Positions 35,066 to 56,551 of a stretch of 64,000 nucleotides of DNA are shown piece after piece (the stretch's first letter is position 1; each line of letters begins with the position of its first letter). Both the position numbers and the translations under genes were made by a program. The stretch is from Escherichia coli (GTDB lineage: Bacteria; Pseudomonadota; Gammaproteobacteria; Enterobacterales; Enterobacteriaceae), in the NCBI RefSeq assembly GCF_048403405.1, contig NZ_CP183129.1; one strand, 5' to 3'. Below the pieces are notes generated by a model that searched no databases, was not told where the DNA came from, and saw only the letters and a list, made by a program, of their open reading frames with translations.

Positions 35066-36157
35066 ATGCGTTTTCTGCGCCGACCAATATCGCTGCGCCA
35101 ACGGCTGATATTGACCATTGGGGCCATTTTGTTGGTGTTTGAGCTGATCAGCGTCTTCTGGCTATGGCATGAAAGTACCGAGCAGATTCAGCTGTTTGAG
35201 CAGGCGCTACGCGACAATCGCAACAACGATCGCCACATCATGCGTGAGATCCGCGAGGCGGTCGCCAGCCTGATCGTCCCCGGCGTCTTTATGGTCAGCC
35301 TGACGCTATTTATCTGCTATCAGGCGGTACGCCGCATCACCCGCCCGCTGGCGGAGCTGCAAAAAGAGCTGGAAGCGCGCACCGCCGACAACTTAACGCC
35401 CATTGCCATTCACAGCGCCACCCTCGAAATCGAAGCGGTGGTTTCGGCGTTAAACGATCTGGTCAGTCGCCTGACCAACACGCTGGATAACGAAAGGTTG
35501 TTTACCGCTGACGTCGCGCACGAACTGCGAACGCCACTGGCGGGGGTGCGTTTGCATCTGGAACTGCTGGCGAAAACGCATCACATTGATGTAGCACCGT
35601 TAGTGGCACGGCTTGATCAGACGATGGAGAGCGTCTCCCAGCTGCTGCAACTGGCGCGTGCCGGACAGTCATTTTCTTCCGGTAATTATCAACATGTAAA
35701 ACTGCTGGAAGATGTCATTCTCCCCTCGTATGACGAACTCAGTACCATGCTCGACCAGCGACAGCAAACCCTGCTATTGCCAGAGAGCGCCGCCGACATC
35801 ACCGTTCAGGGTGATGCAACCCTGCTGCGGATGTTATTGCGAAACCTGGTAGAAAACGCCCATCGTTACAGCCCGCAAGGCAGCAACATTATGATTAAGC
35901 TGCAAGAAGATGGCGGAGCGGTCATGGCCGTTGAAGATGAAGGACCGGGTATTGATGAGAGTAAATGCGGGGAGTTGAGTAAAGCGTTTGTACGTATGGA
36001 CAGCCGTTATGGCGGGATTGGTCTGGGGTTAAGTATTGTCAGCCGCATTACACAGTTGCATCACGGGCAGTTTTTCCTGCAAAACCGGCAAGAGACTTCC
36101 GGCACGCGGGCCTGGGTACGGCTGAAGAAAGATCAGTACGTGGTAAACCAGATATAA
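35066..36157 (+). CDS. basS: sensor histidine kinase BasS (PmrB), 363 aa
   Basis: ORF track starts at TTG 35057; ATG at 35066; two TM segments, H-box (VAHELRTPL) and HATPase (EDEGPGI); matches recalled BasS. Confidence 0.9.
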   Translation: MRFLRRPISLRQRLILTIGAILLVFELISVFWLWHESTEQIQLFEQALRDNRNNDRHIMREIREAVASLIVPGVFMVSLTLFICYQAVRRITRPLAELQKELEARTADNLTPIAIHSATLEIEAVVSALNDLVSRLTNTLDNERLFTADVAHELRTPLAGVRLHLELLAKTHHIDVAPLVARLDQTMESVSQLLQLARAGQSFSSGNYQHVKLLEDVILPSYDELSTMLDQRQQTLLLPESAADITVQGDATLLRMLLRNLVENAHRYSPQGSNIMIKLQEDGGAVMAVEDEGPGIDESKCGELSKAFVRMDSRYGGIGLGLSIVSRITQLHHGQFFLQNRQETSGTRAWVRLKKDQYVVNQI

Positions 36158-36222
36158 AGAAAGCTGCTGACCACCAGCACGCTGAACACGGTAGTTAAAC
36201 TTTCATAAACACGGTTTTTCAT
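36133..36222 (-). CDS. pmrR: small membrane protein PmrR, 29 aa, convergently overlapping basS 3' end
   Basis: Hand translation of the minus strand: strong RBS ggaggagag then ATG giving MKNRVYESLTTVFSVLVVSSFLYIWFTTY*; matches recalled PmrR; overlaps the last 25 nt of basS. Confidence 0.75.
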   Translation of the reverse strand: MKNRVYESLTTVFSVLVVSSFLYIWFTTY

Positions 36223-36330
36223 TGCACTCTCCTCCGTTAACCTGGAGGAGAGTATGCGCGTCAGAGATTAAGTGAACCTTAAGACTTCAATTGGCCTGAT
36301 AAGACAGCGTCTCAGGCCATCCGTTTCAGC

Positions 36331-38096: not shown

Positions 38097-38975
38097 TTAC
38101 ACCAAATTTACAGAGAAGATTTCCTCGACCATTGCCCCCGCCAGACGCTGCGCTGAACAGAGTCGTGGCATCCCCAGCGCGACAGTTTGCCAGCGTTGGG
38201 TCACTGACCAGCAAACGGGTTGTTTATCTGCCGTGGTCCACTTTCCCAGCCAACTTAAAAAATCAGCATGATCCCCGCCCGTCGGAATGGTCGAAGAGGC
38301 AAACCACTGATGGTAATAGTGACGCGTGGTCGGTGCCGCATTGATACTCTCTGCCAGATGTTGTGTCGCTTTCTCGCGCAAATCACCCAGCAACAACGCC
38401 ACCGCTTGCGGGCTTCCCAGACGGCAGGCATCGCCAAATGCCCCCCAGCGCAACTCCTCCAGAACGATAAAACAGCGCCCAGGCAACGACCAGGCGTTAT
38501 ACGCCCCAGCACGCCAGCGGGTAAAAATTTGCTCGCTCTGTTCACCCGCCTGCACCAGTAGGCCTCGTTGCGTTAACGCCTTTTCCTTCCAGCGACAACG
38601 GGCTGAAAACCACTCATACAAGGCGGCAATTTGCTGGGGGAGCTCCGGGAAAGCAGAGTGCTGGCGGTGATCCATTTTTTGCAGCAGCGCCAGATGCTGC
38701 GCGATCTGCGTCAGCGCCAGATGACCGGGATCCAGCATCGACGCCAGTTTTTCCACCAATGTCAGACGCAGGCTAAGCGGCGCATTTAACATCCCGCCGT
38801 TCGTCCATGCCTGAAGCTGCACACGCGCAAGAAGTTCCTGCATCAGTCGTTCACGAAACTGCTGCTGATGGGTTTGTGGATGGCGGGCATCATCGCCCTG
38901 CGCCAGATCCACTAAAAAGCGCGGATGAACCGACTCCAGCACGCGACCGGGGCCGTCCAGTAACGTCTTGATCAA
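38097..38975 (-). CDS. yjcZ: uncharacterised protein YjcZ, 292 aa (co-operonic partner of the dynamin-like CrfC)
   Basis: ORF whose start overlaps the crfC stop by 4 nt; matches recalled YjcZ. Confidence 0.88.
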   Translation of the reverse strand: MIKTLLDGPGRVLESVHPRFLVDLAQGDDARHPQTHQQQFRERLMQELLARVQLQAWTNGGMLNAPLSLRLTLVEKLASMLDPGHLALTQIAQHLALLQKMDHRQHSAFPELPQQIAALYEWFSARCRWKEKALTQRGLLVQAGEQSEQIFTRWRAGAYNAWSLPGRCFIVLEELRWGAFGDACRLGSPQAVALLLGDLREKATQHLAESINAAPTTRHYYHQWFASSTIPTGGDHADFLSWLGKWTTADKQPVCWSVTQRWQTVALGMPRLCSAQRLAGAMVEEIFSVNLV

Positions 38976-41200
38976 TATCGTTCTGCCGTGAAAAGTGTTT
39001 GAATATCATCGCGTAACAGCTGAGCGTCGGTGTAAATCCAGCTGTGAGTCATCACAGCCTGCTGCAATTGCTGCTGCATCAGCCTGACCACCGATTCATT
39101 TTGTTGACGCAGAGCCAGGCTTTCGCGTAAACGCGTCTGTAATTCCGTCAAACATGAAGCGAACTCAGCGAAAAAAGTATTCATGCCTGCCGTAACAGAT
39201 TCATCGACCTGCTCTGCCAGAACTTTAGCCATTTGTTGGCAATAAAGATCGACTTCTGCGCTTAATGCTCGTTGCAACACACTGTAATCAACCGTCTCTG
39301 TCGGGGATTTCTCATTTCCCCGTCCCCAGTCGGGCTGATTCAACCAGCGCGAAAAAGTCTCACGCACAACGCCTAAACGCGTGCTCTGCTCGTCCGTTGC
39401 TTCCTGGCGCGAAATGACTTCACTGAACAGCTGGCGAGTGTTGAAGTGGGGAACTGCGCCGTGAAAAACAGGAAAATGAAACCCAGGACGAAACCCTGAC
39501 TCGCTCAATTCCATTTTGACTTGTTGCTCAATGGGGCGAATAACATCGGTTAACACCCGGCAAAGGGTGGATTCCAGCTCGGCAAAACGCAGCGTAAAGT
39601 CGCGACTGATGGTGTTCTGCGCCGTCTGTAACAGTGTCTCACAGCGGGTACGAATCTCGCTTAACGGCTCCGAATCATCCTGAAACAAGGCGGCTAACTG
39701 CGCATTCACCGCATCTTGCTGTTGACGCAGAAAGTAGTTGGCGGAGGTCAGGGCCAGCTCGATTTCATGTTTAATTTCGCCGCTCACCTGCGCCTGATTG
39801 AGTTGCAATAGCTGCAAACTTTCTTCGATCTGATGGATATTTTGCCGCAATTGTTCACAAGCGACGTTTAACCCGTGCGCACGAAAATCCAGGTATTCCC
39901 GCGCCTGCTGCCCGTAATTCAACAGTTTATGCGCGGCAGATCGCAGAGCATACAACGAGGCGTTAGTGTAAGCGGCATGAAGCAACGCCTGAATTGGCTT
40001 GGCGAACAGCGAATCTTCCCACAACTGATCGGCAGCATGACGAATATGTTCGAGGTCCGCCAGATCGGCATGACGCCAGCGCCTGCCGAGCGCGGCATGG
40101 GCAAAATCTTCCACCCAGCGTTGTTGCTCTGGCGCGGGTAACTTACCGTTGTTGGCTAACTCATGGCGCGCCCGATTCGCCAGGTAGCCCCACATCGACG
40201 ACACTGGAAATATCTGCTGTGGCGTAATACAGCCTTTCATCAGCGTCCCGGAAATCAGTGCCCGCACCTGGTCGGCGTCGTCACTGTTACGATCCTGTTG
40301 ATCGAACTTATTGACCAGCACATACAGCGGCACCGATTGCCCCACCGCCAAAATCGCCTCACGGACCTCTTCATCGGAGATCGATTTCAGTTGCGTATAA
40401 TCCAGCACCGCCAGTACCGCCGAGGCGCGTGCCAGCTGCTGGTTAAGCATTTTTTGCAGATGCGGTTGCCCGGCTTCATTTGGCCCGGGGGTATCCAGTA
40501 ACGTCAACTGACCGGGATAACTCTCCAGCCCCGCCAGATGGACAAACTCCACTTCAATCACGGGAATATGCTCAATGGCGGCGTAAGCAGAAAAAGGAAA
40601 ATCGACGTCCAGCGCCTTCGCCAGTCGCACCAAATCATTCAAACTTTTCAGACAATGAAAAATAGGCTGGGCACCCAGATAATATTTTTCGAAAGCGACG
40701 CCATTTTCGATCCGCTGCATAAGCGCACGCATATCTTTATCTATTTCCAGCACATCGGTCAGATGCTTAATATCGCAATCACGCAGGCGCTGTTGTAATT
40801 TTTGAATTAAACAATCGATTGGCGCGACATGTGAAAAATGCAGTACCGGTTCCTTTTGCCCGGGCGTATGGCGAATAAGCGTCGGCAGCGCAGTCATTGG
40901 GCGATTACGATTAGGCAGAACCTCCGTACCAACAATGGCATTAATGGTGGTTGATTTCCCTGCTTTCATGGTACCGACAATCGCCAGCACCATTTCCAGT
41001 CGGGAAATTTTACGCAACTCATTATTCAGCATCGCGTGACGTTCGGCGATATTAGGCTGACTCCAGGGTAAAGCCAGTTGTGGCGCATCGTCTCCGGGGA
41101 CAGAGAGAGGCATTTTTTCCAGTAACTGCAACTGTTGGCGAGAAAGCTGTAACAGGCGTTCAGCCTCCTGACTTAACTCATACAGGGTCTGTGTGTACAT
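38972..41200 (-). CDS. crfC: dynamin-like GTPase CrfC (YjdA), 742 aa
   Basis: ORF with P-loop/G1 motif GTMKAGKST near the N-terminus and long predicted helical/coiled-coil regions; matches recalled YjdA/CrfC. Confidence 0.9.
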   Translation of the reverse strand: MYTQTLYELSQEAERLLQLSRQQLQLLEKMPLSVPGDDAPQLALPWSQPNIAERHAMLNNELRKISRLEMVLAIVGTMKAGKSTTINAIVGTEVLPNRNRPMTALPTLIRHTPGQKEPVLHFSHVAPIDCLIQKLQQRLRDCDIKHLTDVLEIDKDMRALMQRIENGVAFEKYYLGAQPIFHCLKSLNDLVRLAKALDVDFPFSAYAAIEHIPVIEVEFVHLAGLESYPGQLTLLDTPGPNEAGQPHLQKMLNQQLARASAVLAVLDYTQLKSISDEEVREAILAVGQSVPLYVLVNKFDQQDRNSDDADQVRALISGTLMKGCITPQQIFPVSSMWGYLANRARHELANNGKLPAPEQQRWVEDFAHAALGRRWRHADLADLEHIRHAADQLWEDSLFAKPIQALLHAAYTNASLYALRSAAHKLLNYGQQAREYLDFRAHGLNVACEQLRQNIHQIEESLQLLQLNQAQVSGEIKHEIELALTSANYFLRQQQDAVNAQLAALFQDDSEPLSEIRTRCETLLQTAQNTISRDFTLRFAELESTLCRVLTDVIRPIEQQVKMELSESGFRPGFHFPVFHGAVPHFNTRQLFSEVISRQEATDEQSTRLGVVRETFSRWLNQPDWGRGNEKSPTETVDYSVLQRALSAEVDLYCQQMAKVLAEQVDESVTAGMNTFFAEFASCLTELQTRLRESLALRQQNESVVRLMQQQLQQAVMTHSWIYTDAQLLRDDIQTLFTAERY

Positions 41201-41505
41201 AGAAAATTCTTCCTTAAAGCAAATTTTGTTACTTTTATTTAGCCAGATTGTTTTTGAGTTCTGTTTTCGGCTTTTATAATTACTGCAAGAAATAATTTTA
41301 TATTTAGAGTGTTGTTTTTTATTAGAATAAATAACGTCTTCCGATACGTTTAAAACGTCAGAAAGATAAAAATATCATTTGAATTAAAAAAAGAACAAGT
41401 AGAGCATTAACCTTATCTTAAATAATAAATGGAGGCAAAAAGATTATTTTCTTTTTGCGTTTCCTTTCAAATGAAAACGATCGTCGTCTAAAATCAGCAG
41501 TACCC

Positions 41506-41534
41506 CCGACAAACTCAGGGATTTTGTGTATAAT
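41506..41534 (+). promoter_or_regulatory. putative sigma-70 promoter for yjdM
   Basis: Perfect -10 TATAAT at 41529-41534 preceded by tgtg; candidate -35 ccgaca 17 bp upstream; about 68 bp before the yjdM ATG. Confidence 0.35.
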
Positions 41535-41601
41535 TGCGGCCTTTTTCGGCAATCTGCCGTTTTTTGGCGCTTTTGCCCTGCTGACTTTTGAGGAAATCCA
41601 C

Positions 41602-41937: not shown

Positions 41938-41955
41938 TTGTATTGTGATCGGTAA

Positions 41956-42031
41956 GCCGGATAAGGCGCTCGCGCCGCATCCGGCAACGATGCCGACTGC
42001 CTGATGCGACGCTGACCGCGTCTTATCAGGC
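41956..42031. repeat. BIME (two inverted REP elements) between yjdM and yjdN
   Basis: gccggataaggcgctcgcgccgcatccggc and gcctgatgcgacgctgaccgcgtcttatcaggc REP-family palindromes. Confidence 0.6.
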
Positions 42032-42096
42032 TTCCCTCTCATCTGTATAAATTTCGAACTACACTTAAGTGGCTTCTCTTAACTGAGGTCACCATC

Positions 42097-54565: not shown

Positions 54566-56551
54566 ATGAATAACTCTCGGTTATTCCGTTTGAGCAGGAT
54601 TGTTATTGCGTTAACTGCCGCCAGCGGCATGATGGTAAATACCGCTTACGCAACAGATGAAGCGAAAGCCGCCACTCAATATACCCAACAGATTAATCAG
54701 AATTACGCCAAATCATTACCGTTTAGCGATCGTCAGGATTTTGACGATGCCCAGCGTGGATTTATCGCCCCGCTGCTGGATGAAGGTATTCTGCGTGATG
54801 CTAACGGTAAAGTTTACTACCGCGCAGACGATTACAAATTTGATATTAATGCCGCTGCGCCGGAAACCGTAAACCCCAGCCTGTGGCGTCAGTCGCAAAT
54901 CAACGGTATTTCTGGCCTGTTCAAAGTCACCGATAAAATGTATCAGGTGCGCGGCCAGGATATCTCTAACATTACGTTCGTTGAGGGCGAGAAAGGCATT
55001 ATTGTTATCGACCCACTGGTGACGCCGCCTACCGCAAAAGCCGCACTTGATCTTTACTTCCAGCATCGTCCGCAAAAACCGATTGTTGCTGTGATTTACA
55101 CCCACAGCCACGCCGACCATTATGGCGGTGTGAAAGGCATTATCTCTGAAGCCGATGTTAAATCCGGCAAAGTTCAGGTGATTGCTCCAGCTGGCTTTAT
55201 GGACGAAGCCATCAGCGAAAACGTGCTGGCGGGTAACATCATGAGCCGCCGTGCGCTCTACTCTTACGGTCTGTTACTGCCGCACAACGCGCAAGGCAAC
55301 GTGGGCAACGGCCTTGGCGTGACGCTGGCAACGGGCGACCCGAGCATTATTGCACCGACTAAAACTATCGTCAGAACTGGCGAGAAGATGATTATCGACG
55401 GCCTGGAGTTTGACTTCCTGATGACCCCAGGTAGCGAAGCGCCAGCCGAAATGCACTTCTATATTCCGGCCCTGAAAGCCCTGTGTACCGCCGAGAACGC
55501 CACGCATACCCTGCACAACTTCTACACTCTGCGCGGCGCGAAAACCCGCGATACCAGCAAGTGGACCGAGTACCTGAACGAAACGCTGGATATGTGGGGT
55601 AACGACGCGGAAGTACTGTTTATGCCGCACACCTGGCCGGTCTGGGGCAATAAGCATATCAATGATTATATTGGTAAATATCGCGATACTATCAAGTACA
55701 TTCACGACCAGACCCTGCACCTGGCGAACCAGGGCTACACCATGAATGAAATCGGCGACATGATTAAGCTGCCGCCTGCGCTTGCCAATAATTGGGCCAG
55801 CCGCGGCTATTACGGTTCTGTCAGCCACAACGCCCGCGCGGTATATAACTTCTATCTTGGCTATTACGACGGTAACCCGGCTAACCTGCATCCCTATGGT
55901 CAGGTGGAGATGGGTAAACGTTACGTGCAGGCGCTGGGCGGTTCTGCCCGTGTCATCAACCTGGCGCAAGAAGCGAACAAGCAAGGTGATTACCGTTGGT
56001 CGGCAGAACTGCTGAAACAGGTGATTGCCGCCAACCCAGGTGACCAGGTCGCGAAGAATCTGCAAGCGAATAACTTTGAACAGCTGGGCTATCAGGCCGA
56101 GTCCGCCACCTGGCGCGGTTTCTACCTGACCGGCGCGAAAGAGCTGCGCGAAGGGGTACATAAGTTCAGCCACAGCTCCACCGGTTCCCCGGACACCCTT
56201 CGCGGGATGTCGGTCGAAATGCTATTCGACTTTATGGCCGTTCGCCTCGATAGCGCGAAAGCCGCAGGTAAGAATATCAGCCTGAACTTCAATATGAGCA
56301 ACGGCGATAACCTCAACCTGACGCTGAACGATAGCGTGCTTAACTACCGTAAAACGCTGCAACCTGAAGCCAACGCCTCTTTCTACATCAGCCGTGAAGA
56401 TCTTCACGCCGTGCTGACCGGACAAGCCAAAATGGCGGATCTGGTAAAAGCGAAGAAAGCCAAAATTATTGGCAATGGTGCGAAACTGGAAGAAATTATT
56501 GCCTGTCTGGATAATTTCGATTTGTGGGTGAATATCGTAACCCCAAATTAA
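54566..56551 (+). CDS. yjcS: putative alkyl/aryl-sulfatase YjcS (metallo-beta-lactamase superfamily), 661 aa
   Basis: ATG at 54566 with RBS tggaga ([21 protein letters not shown]...YA signal peptide); HxHxDH motif HSHADH; ORF track starts 12 nt upstream. Confidence 0.9.

Follow-up and report, generated by a model that had tools for sequence, protein, structure and literature searches.

A 64,000-nucleotide stretch of Escherichia coli DNA (contig NZ_CP183129.1 of RefSeq assembly GCF_048403405.1; hereafter the window, numbered from its first nucleotide) carries a two-gene operon in which crfC, also called yjdA or rdcA, encodes a dynamin-like GTPase and rdcB, also called yjcZ, encodes its partner protein. 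Our analysis indicates that this locus is very probably the already characterised rdcA–rdcB operon of E. coli, the partner system of DgcE. The locus is 100% identical at the DNA level to an E. coli chromosome (TUM14771) in which RefSeq labels the two genes crfC and rdcB; the corresponding product names are ‘clamp-binding protein CrfC’ and ‘YjcZ-like / diguanylate cyclase regulator RdcB family protein’. It was found in 5419 of the 5426 complete E. coli genomes (99.9%), with 95–100% DNA identity among them, and is therefore core. The operon is flanked on one side by proP, which follows rdcB after a gap of 230 bp, and on the other by yjdM, yjdN and the phn genes. The two reading frames meet at the junction CGATATTGATC, where the TGA stop codon of crfC and the TTG start codon of rdcB share 4 nt.

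A preliminary description, made from the sequence alone, had given the 742-amino-acid (aa) dynamin-like GTPase, its P-loop, the 4-nt overlap, the 292-aa partner and the AT-rich upstream region (401 bp), and every one of these details is confirmed, as are the gene identities crfC/yjdA and yjcZ and the literature cited on CrfC at the replication fork. Its characterisation of the locus as the least understood module of the window, with a 292-aa protein of unknown function, is outdated: RefSeq names the gene rdcB, co-activation of DgcE has been shown (PMC6510439) and a second study recovers both genes (PMC13031359). The operon in the window is itself well annotated and experimentally characterised, ‘unknown function’ should give way to RdcB, a co-activator of DgcE, and the finding at this locus adds little to what is already known. 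The features on which the following sections draw are collected in Table 1.

Published function and proposed mechanism

YjdA and YjcZ were renamed RdcA and RdcB by Pfiffer et al. 2019 (PMC6510439), who reported that deletion of rdcA or rdcB phenocopies deletion of dgcE with respect to macrocolony matrix, CsgD, curli, csgB expression and cyclic di-GMP (c-di-GMP), and that the effects are not additive. [quoted passage not shown] The physical contact between CrfC and YjcZ, on which the preliminary description had made its view of the pair depend, had thus already been measured. The GTPase-dead variant RdcA-T103D is inactive and has lost DgcE binding, and RdcA-K82A, in which the P-loop lysine required to bind GTP is missing, retains full activity; because of these two phenotypes, nucleotide-free RdcA is taken to be the active form and GTP an inhibitor (PMC6510439). 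The same authors proposed the drop in GTP at entry into stationary phase as the signal, and RdcB as a GTPase activator or nucleotide-release factor (PMC6510439). A 2026 genome-wide FRET-To-Sort (FRET, Förster resonance energy transfer) screen placed rdcA, rdcB and dgcE among the low-c-di-GMP mutants, that is, among the activators of c-di-GMP (PMC13031359).

In E. coli K-12, others have shown RdcA to be a soluble, self-associating, dynamin-like GTPase that binds RdcB and docks on the membrane-embedded MASE1 domain of DgcE. DgcE needs both RdcA and RdcB to supply the c-di-GMP by which CsgD, curli and cellulose are turned on and flagella are slowed through YcgR. RdcA is active in its nucleotide-free form and inhibited by GTP, with GTP hydrolysis needed to leave the inhibited state, and the system is accordingly proposed to sense the fall in GTP. 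RdcB, for its part, would be an all-alpha subunit that regulates the GTPase or serves as its adaptor, whether as a GTPase activator, as a nucleotide-release factor or as an assembly factor. Its family would in general link this type of dynamin to an output protein, DgcE for the core operon and a patatin phospholipase for the mobile cassettes described below.

Several points weigh against this reading. The sequence of the window does not itself demonstrate the link to DgcE, which rests on published experiments in K-12, and dgcE lies outside the window. The predicted fold of RdcB has no informative match. Published work has also assigned CrfC another primary role, in clamp binding and nucleoid equipartition (PMC6374313), and deletion of yjcZ alone gave no motility phenotype (PMC4183435).

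A further protein has been connected to the system. YnjH, a FliA target in one study (PMC4183435), is reported to be strongly associated with the RdcA/RdcB–DgcE system (PMC13031359), of which it may be a further component.

The RdcA and RdcB proteins

CrfC matches the NCBIfam equivalog NF007368 at 1587.6 bits (cutoff 1146) across residues 1–742, and residues 72–277 match Pfam Dynamin_N (E 7e-18). A dynamin-type large G domain is present, with the P-loop VGTMKAGKST at residues 75–84; all G-domain motifs are there, and the residues for GTP binding and hydrolysis, K82 in G1 and T103 in G2, are intact in the window. An AlphaFold2 model built on an alignment of 42 homologues (predicted local distance difference test score (pLDDT) 79, predicted template modelling score (pTM) 0.69) has an N-terminal helix, a disordered linker (residues 30–47), the G domain (69–350) and very long helices (414–567 and 639–741), a dynamin-like fold in which a helical neck or stalk bundle follows the G domain. 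Residues 568–638, between the long stalk helices, form a poorly predicted tip with pLDDT below 50 at 581–636. This tip, disordered in the model and conserved in the alignment, is a candidate partner-facing or membrane-facing surface. Neither the tip nor the rest of CrfC contains a membrane-spanning or paddle-like segment (the maximum Kyte–Doolittle hydropathy over 19 residues is 1.21), and the hydropathy scan found no transmembrane-like segment in either CrfC or RdcB. RdcA has been described as soluble (PMC6510439).

The only Pfam match of RdcB is to PF13990 (YjcZ), with E 9e-144 over residues 21–287. An NCBIfam scan assigned it to no family, and a sequence search of the Protein Data Bank (PDB) returned chance matches to green fluorescent protein (GFP) fusions only, all with E above 0.2. 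The AlphaFold2 model, with 80 family members in the alignment, is all-alpha (pLDDT 90.6, pTM 0.91). A Foldseek search of this model against AFDB50 matched YjcZ-family proteins only, many of them mis-annotated as ‘chemotaxis protein’, and the structure searches as a whole, Foldseek included, found no match outside the family. The structure prediction and remote-homology check that the preliminary description had proposed for YjcZ yielded a fold and nothing informative beyond the family itself. Across the YjcZ family G181 is invariant, and K19, W154, G157, L175, W177, G178, W224, P253, P270, R277 and E285 are nearly so. No GTPase domain was found in RdcB by Pfam or in the model, and the pair is therefore not a tandem dynamin like the two halves of DynA, DLP1/DLP2 or LeoA/LeoBC.

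An intragenic FliA promoter and the AT-rich upstream region

Fitzgerald et al. 2014 used chromatin immunoprecipitation with sequencing (ChIP-seq) and RNA sequencing (RNA-seq) to map a FliA (sigma-28) promoter that lies within yjdA and transcribes yjcZ, and stated that a FliA promoter predicted earlier, upstream of yjdA, was wrong (PMC4183435). The promoter sequence is present without a mismatch within crfC, 224 nt upstream of the rdcB start. Across the 80 orthologous loci described below, the consensus TAAAG[CT]TT-N11-GTCGAT is kept from genus to genus and the codons of the spacer vary. Third-codon-position conservation averages 0.85 in the FliA hexamers versus 0.605 gene-wide; among 733 windows laid out in the same way, only 3 attain the hexamer value. 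Because the match is exact and the site conserved, rdcB has two transcriptional inputs: as read from the sequence, it is transcribed from the operon promoter, with translational coupling, and from a conserved flagellar-regulon promoter of its own. The preliminary description was right about the operon and overlooked this promoter. The NTGA overlap and the conservation of the promoter at synonymous sites argue that a separate supply of RdcB, timed with the flagellar regulon, is functionally important.

The divergent intergenic region between crfC and yjdM has a GC content of 31.7% versus 51.6% for the whole window, in which 0.4% of 401-bp windows fall below 33%. In agreement with the mapping study (PMC4183435), no FliA consensus within 3 mismatches occurs in this region (41201–41601). 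Sigma-70-like sites number 7, against 4.1 expected from shuffles. The crfC–yjcZ pair has been listed as H-NS-bound, with expression up 2.6-fold on over-expression of SlyA (PMC5797941), and the AT-rich upstream region fits the H-NS listing.

Elsewhere in the window, the second-best match to the FliA consensus is TAAAGTTTACTACCGCGCAGACGATTA at 54808–54834 (+), with 2 mismatches. About 0.55 such matches are expected per window, and this one may be a chance occurrence.

Conservation of the core module

We scanned one genome per species and took the 80 best rdcB loci. Among these, relatives of rdcB occur in Enterobacteriaceae only, in genera that include Escherichia, Citrobacter, Enterobacter, Kosakonia, Phytobacter, Lelliottia and Leclercia as well as Trabulsiella, Yokenella, Pluralibacter, Atlantibacter, Franconibacter and Siccibacter. 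In every one of the 80 species loci the gene immediately upstream of rdcB is a crfC homologue, the yjdM region is on the far side of crfC in 78 (these matches mark the locus rather than the YjdM protein), and proP is downstream of rdcB in most. The neighbourhood analysis that the preliminary description had called for thus bears out a constant crfC–rdcB pairing among fixed neighbours. The NTGA overlap is retained in 81 of 87 related loci, as ATGA in most genera and as TTGA in Escherichia alone, the TTG start of rdcB being specific to Escherichia in this set. Since homologues of crfC and of rdcB each number hundreds and the overlap is kept so widely, the two reading frames are not chance ones.

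The G1–G4 motifs of CrfC are kept in 77–80 of the 80 orthologues, with VGTMKAGKST in 78 and RNRPMTALP in 77. T103 is invariant across 42 dynamins that span both the two-gene clade of the core operon and the three-gene clade of the mobile cassettes described below. A tip motif, DWGWE[DS]Y, is common to the two clades and reads DWGRGNE in E. coli CrfC. Escherichia CrfC also has an N-terminal linker that is about 8 residues shorter, with QLALPW in place of V[LQ]PLHF, and Escherichia sits on a long branch in the dynamin tree. Together with the TTG start, these changes in linker, tip motif and branch length may reflect a lineage-specific neofunctionalisation.

Two observations concern the distribution and surroundings of the module. 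Among the named RdcB matches listed there is no chromosomal orthologue from Salmonella or Klebsiella, both of which are very heavily sequenced genera, and the core rdcA–rdcB module may be absent from their chromosomes. In Citrobacter and Enterobacter, a membrane permease of about 335 aa, KdgT-like by sequence, lies on the opposite strand between rdcB and proP.

Mobile cassettes with a phospholipase gene

In the wider YjcZ family, the yjcZ-like gene is almost always the middle gene of a mobile Dynamin–YjcZ–Patatin cassette, often beside defence genes. An exhaustive, profile-free search found about 200 representative YjcZ-family proteins. All five of the distant representatives that were looked up (22–32% identity to RdcB) are encoded between a gene for a 750–880-aa Dynamin_N protein and a Patatin gene, the stop codon of one gene overlapping the start of the next, and one member with 33% identity, which clusters with RdcB, comes from a two-gene locus. 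A metagenome scan added 80 YjcZ loci in 24 clusters at 70% identity, of which 74 had room on both sides to be assessed; the Dynamin–YjcZ–Patatin order is present in 73 of these, with overlaps of 4–10 nt. The patatin motifs GGGxxG, GxSxG (as GASIG) and DGG are intact in 70 of 75. No conserved fourth gene was found in the metagenome loci, the flanks of which vary.

The three-gene form is mobile and widespread: it occurs in roughly half of E. coli genomes, is carried by IncF plasmids and extends to many other Proteobacteria. One paralogous cassette is present in 2614 of the 5426 complete E. coli genomes (48%). It lies on an island similar to the K-12 cryptic prophage CP4-44, together with yeeS/yeeT, cbeA/cbtA, an antirestriction gene and IS100. 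Related cassettes lie between insertion sequence (IS) elements on IncF conjugative plasmids of Klebsiella, Enterobacter and E. coli, and no YjcZ paralogue was found in 50,697 phage records. RefSeq names the successive products ‘dynamin family protein’, ‘RdcB family protein’ and ‘patatin-like phospholipase family protein’. A full-length comparison puts CrfC at 33% identity with the dynamin of the E. coli accessory cassette (E 5e-121), and the YjcZ protein of that cassette shares 31% identity with RdcB. By the names in the AlphaFold database, the cassettes are spread over a broad range of genera, and the two-gene clade is enterobacterial.

In many of the sampled loci, genes near the cassettes match PADLOC models of known or candidate defence systems or are otherwise linked to defence or mobile elements (Table 1), in a sampling of neighbours that was anecdotal and had no control set. 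Three clusters have a WYL-domain regulator next to the dynamin gene; regulators of this kind govern several known defence systems. For one cassette, the YjcZ protein was run against PADLOC and had no match, and in the same database the cassette dynamins and patatins match generic profiles only. Literature searches that combined dynamin and patatin with defence, or that used YjcZ-like or PF13990, returned no paper describing the cassette; one O118 genome paper merely lists the cassette genes on an island.

These relatives bear on the origin of the operon in the window. The core two-gene module could be a domesticated, phospholipase-free relative of a mobile three-gene conflict cassette that has been rewired to DgcE and the flagellar regulon, an explanation that we regard as quite possible, if slightly short of an even chance. 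It draws on the identities between the core and accessory proteins of E. coli, on the near-universal gene order and overlaps across the 24 metagenome clusters and on the contrast between many cassette-bearing genera and a two-gene clade restricted to enterobacteria. In a midpoint-rooted neighbour-joining tree, however, the two-gene and three-gene clades are sisters rather than nested, and the family has no outgroup. Because the clades come out as sisters, loss of the patatin gene cannot be separated from its gain.

We put forward, more tentatively still, a broader proposal in which YjcZ/RdcB would be the adaptor or regulatory subunit of an undescribed class of dynamin modules, with the three-gene form a membrane-attacking conflict system (anti-phage, abortive-infection or anti-plasmid) and the core operon its domesticated sister, rewired to DgcE and c-di-GMP. 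If this is true, the nucleotide-state logic of RdcA and the role of RdcB could carry over to explain how the phospholipase cassette is triggered. The cassette is a worthwhile separate lead, both as a candidate new defence system and as an experimental route to the biochemical role of RdcB.

Clamp binding and defence as alternatives

CrfC might instead be mainly a replication-fork and nucleoid-partition factor, the oligomers of which bind the beta-clamp through 41-QLALP and hold sister forks together, with YjcZ incidental. QLALP is present at residues 41–45 of CrfC, within a flexible linker (pLDDT below 50 at residues 35–43) of the sort in which short clamp-binding motifs usually lie, RefSeq uses the clamp-binding product name, and clamp binding, the anucleate cells of deletion and Q41A mutants and localisation to foci have been summarised (PMC6374313). 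However, Q41, the mutation of which abolishes clamp binding, is found in 1 of the 80 species orthologues, that of E. coli; the segment reads PLTLPW in two other Escherichia species and V[LQ]PLHF in most genera, and a few are missing it. The G motifs, the pairing with rdcB and the FliA promoter are, unlike Q41, conserved throughout. Deletion of crfC causes no growth defect, the clamp is bound irrespective of GTP, and plasmid-expressed protein was used for many of the experiments in vivo (PMC6510439). This account also leaves the need for rdcB unexplained, and we consider it unlikely as the main role of CrfC. The conserved features therefore point to a function of the GTPase together with RdcB and the flagellar regulon, and clamp binding looks specific to the E. 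coli lineage. To judge from the aligned orthologues, clamp binding would be a second activity of CrfC that arose within that lineage; the confinement of Q41 to E. coli supports a recent moonlighting activity.

The preliminary description also raised a second role for the pair in stress or defence, and the core crfC–rdcB locus might then itself be membrane-protective or anti-phage, as has been proposed for Bacillus subtilis DynA and for Eleos (LeoA/LeoBC). CrfC does belong to the dynamin superfamily, with LeoBC (E 8.5e-6) and LeoA (E 4e-5) as weak PADLOC matches, the sister cassettes encode a phospholipase and are found close to defence genes, and yjdA is slightly induced during Bdellovibrio attack (PMC2859166). 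The PADLOC scores are, however, partial (23.2 bits for LeoBC and 20.9 bits for LeoA) and RdcB has none; no patatin profile matches anywhere in the window, which has no other effector gene either, and rdcB is followed only by the short gap and proP. The locus is core in E. coli, with fixed neighbours in 80 species, the opposite of patchy, island-borne defence systems, neither protein has a membrane-binding hydrophobic segment, and we found no paper that links yjdA or rdcA to a phage phenotype. A defence function at the core locus is thus very improbable; what stands of the suggestion is indirect, family-level support from the mobile cassettes near defence genes.

Two further candidates were set aside. 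Assignment of the locus to Eleos was rejected, as adjacent significant matches to LeoA and LeoBC are missing and RdcB matches nothing in PADLOC. A literature match of ‘YjdA’ to membrane stress concerns an unrelated B. subtilis protein.

Other features of the locus and of related loci

Two Rfam matches to non-coding RNAs lie near the operon. The match to STnc630, an enterobacterial small RNA, is at 36126–36291 on the minus strand (183 bits; gathering score 55), just downstream of the proP stop codon; because of this position, it is probably derived from the 3′ untranslated region of proP. The match to naRNA4/CssrE, a nucleoid-associated non-coding RNA, is at 41955–42032 on the plus strand (87.5 bits; gathering score 59.5), immediately after yjdM.

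Table 1 Features of the crfC–rdcB operon in the window and of related loci (L numbers denote individual related loci, with positions within them)
Feature	Position	Strand	Basis or remark
crfC (rdcA, yjdA) coding sequence, dynamin-like GTPase, 742 aa, ATG start	38972..41200	-	Open reading frame list; RefSeq boundaries identical
rdcB (yjcZ) coding sequence, RdcA partner, 292 aa, TTG start	38097..38975	-	Open reading frame list; Pfam; RefSeq
TTGA 4-nt overlap of rdcB TTG start and crfC TGA stop, translational coupling	38972..38975	-	Sequence
P-loop/G1 codons GTMKAGKST, residues 76–84, including K82	40949..40975	-	Translation; K82A phenotype (PMC6510439)
G2 catalytic threonine T103 codon	40892..40894	-	RNRPMTALP motif; T103D phenotype (PMC6510439)
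Beta-clamp-binding motif 41-QLALP codons, residues 41–45	41066..41080	-	Motif named in PMC6374313; seen in translation
CrfC stalk tip codons, residues 568–638	39287..39499	-	Low pLDDT; aligned conserved motif
Intragenic FliA (sigma-28) promoter in crfC, drives rdcB	39200..39227	-	28/28 exact match to TAAAGTTCTGGCAGAGCAGGTCGATGAA of PMC4183435
Shine–Dalgarno-like AAGGAAG upstream of crfC ATG	41209..41215	-	Read from sequence
AT-rich divergent crfC–yjdM intergenic region, holds crfC promoter region	41201..41601	.	401 bp, 31.7% GC
Sigma-70-like promoter match TTGAAA-16-AATAAT	41443..41470	-	10/12, consensus only; weak evidence
KdgT-like permease	L006:8925-9935, L021:8935-9933	-	Lies in the ~1.7-kb rdcB–proP gap in Citrobacter/Enterobacter
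E. coli cassette: dynamin, RdcB-family protein and patatin-like phospholipase, 4-nt overlaps	L092:10361-14714		E. coli SK1144 chromosome
Related three-gene cassette	L093:6773-10991		K. pneumoniae IncFII plasmid
WYL-domain regulators directly upstream of dynamin gene	L097:2114-3211, L171:2356-3444, L120:2842-3147	Same as dynamin gene	PADLOC WYL E 3e-23, 3e-26 and 2e-10; three clusters
JukA-like gene directly downstream of cassette	L105; homologue in L118		
Type IV restriction enzyme near cassette	L105		
PDC-M27C helicase near cassette	L131		
RtcR/CARF regulator near cassette	L152		
NERD-helicase near cassette	L087		
PhdYeFM-PIN toxin–antitoxin pair near cassette	L082		

Comparison with known systems

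The preliminary description likened the operon to two-gene bacterial dynamin modules. The likeness holds for CrfC, which is dynamin-like, and is otherwise loose, since both genes of those modules encode dynamin-like proteins and RdcB is not a GTPase. Set against the bacterial dynamin-like proteins (SynDLP, Nostoc BDLP, Campylobacter DLP1/DLP2, IniA and B. subtilis DynA), CrfC is without their hydrophobic paddle or transmembrane segment, its partner is a non-GTPase of orphan fold rather than a second dynamin-like protein, and RdcA is known to activate a signalling enzyme rather than to fuse or divide membranes. Eleos shares a dynamin-type G domain with CrfC. However, CrfC scores far below the level of the LeoA and LeoBC families, no LeoBC-type second gene is present, and the locus is core and syntenic rather than island-borne.

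Beta-clamp-binding proteins carry motifs of the QL[SD]LF type or, as in Hda, QLSLPL. The 41-QLALP(W) of E. coli CrfC likewise lies in a disordered N-terminal linker, although, of the 80 species, E. coli alone has the motif with its key glutamine. The Dynamin–YjcZ–Patatin cassettes have a homologous dynamin and YjcZ protein, in the same order and with overlapping stop and start codons as in the core operon. They differ in having a third, overlapping patatin phospholipase gene, which the core locus does not have, in being mobile and patchy where the core locus is fixed, and in lacking the QLALP motif of E. coli CrfC. The closest system of all is RdcA/RdcB of E. coli K-12. The window, from a strain other than K-12, shows no substantive difference from it: the operon is the same, with the same two genes, the overlap, K82 and T103, and an identical 28-nt intragenic FliA promoter.

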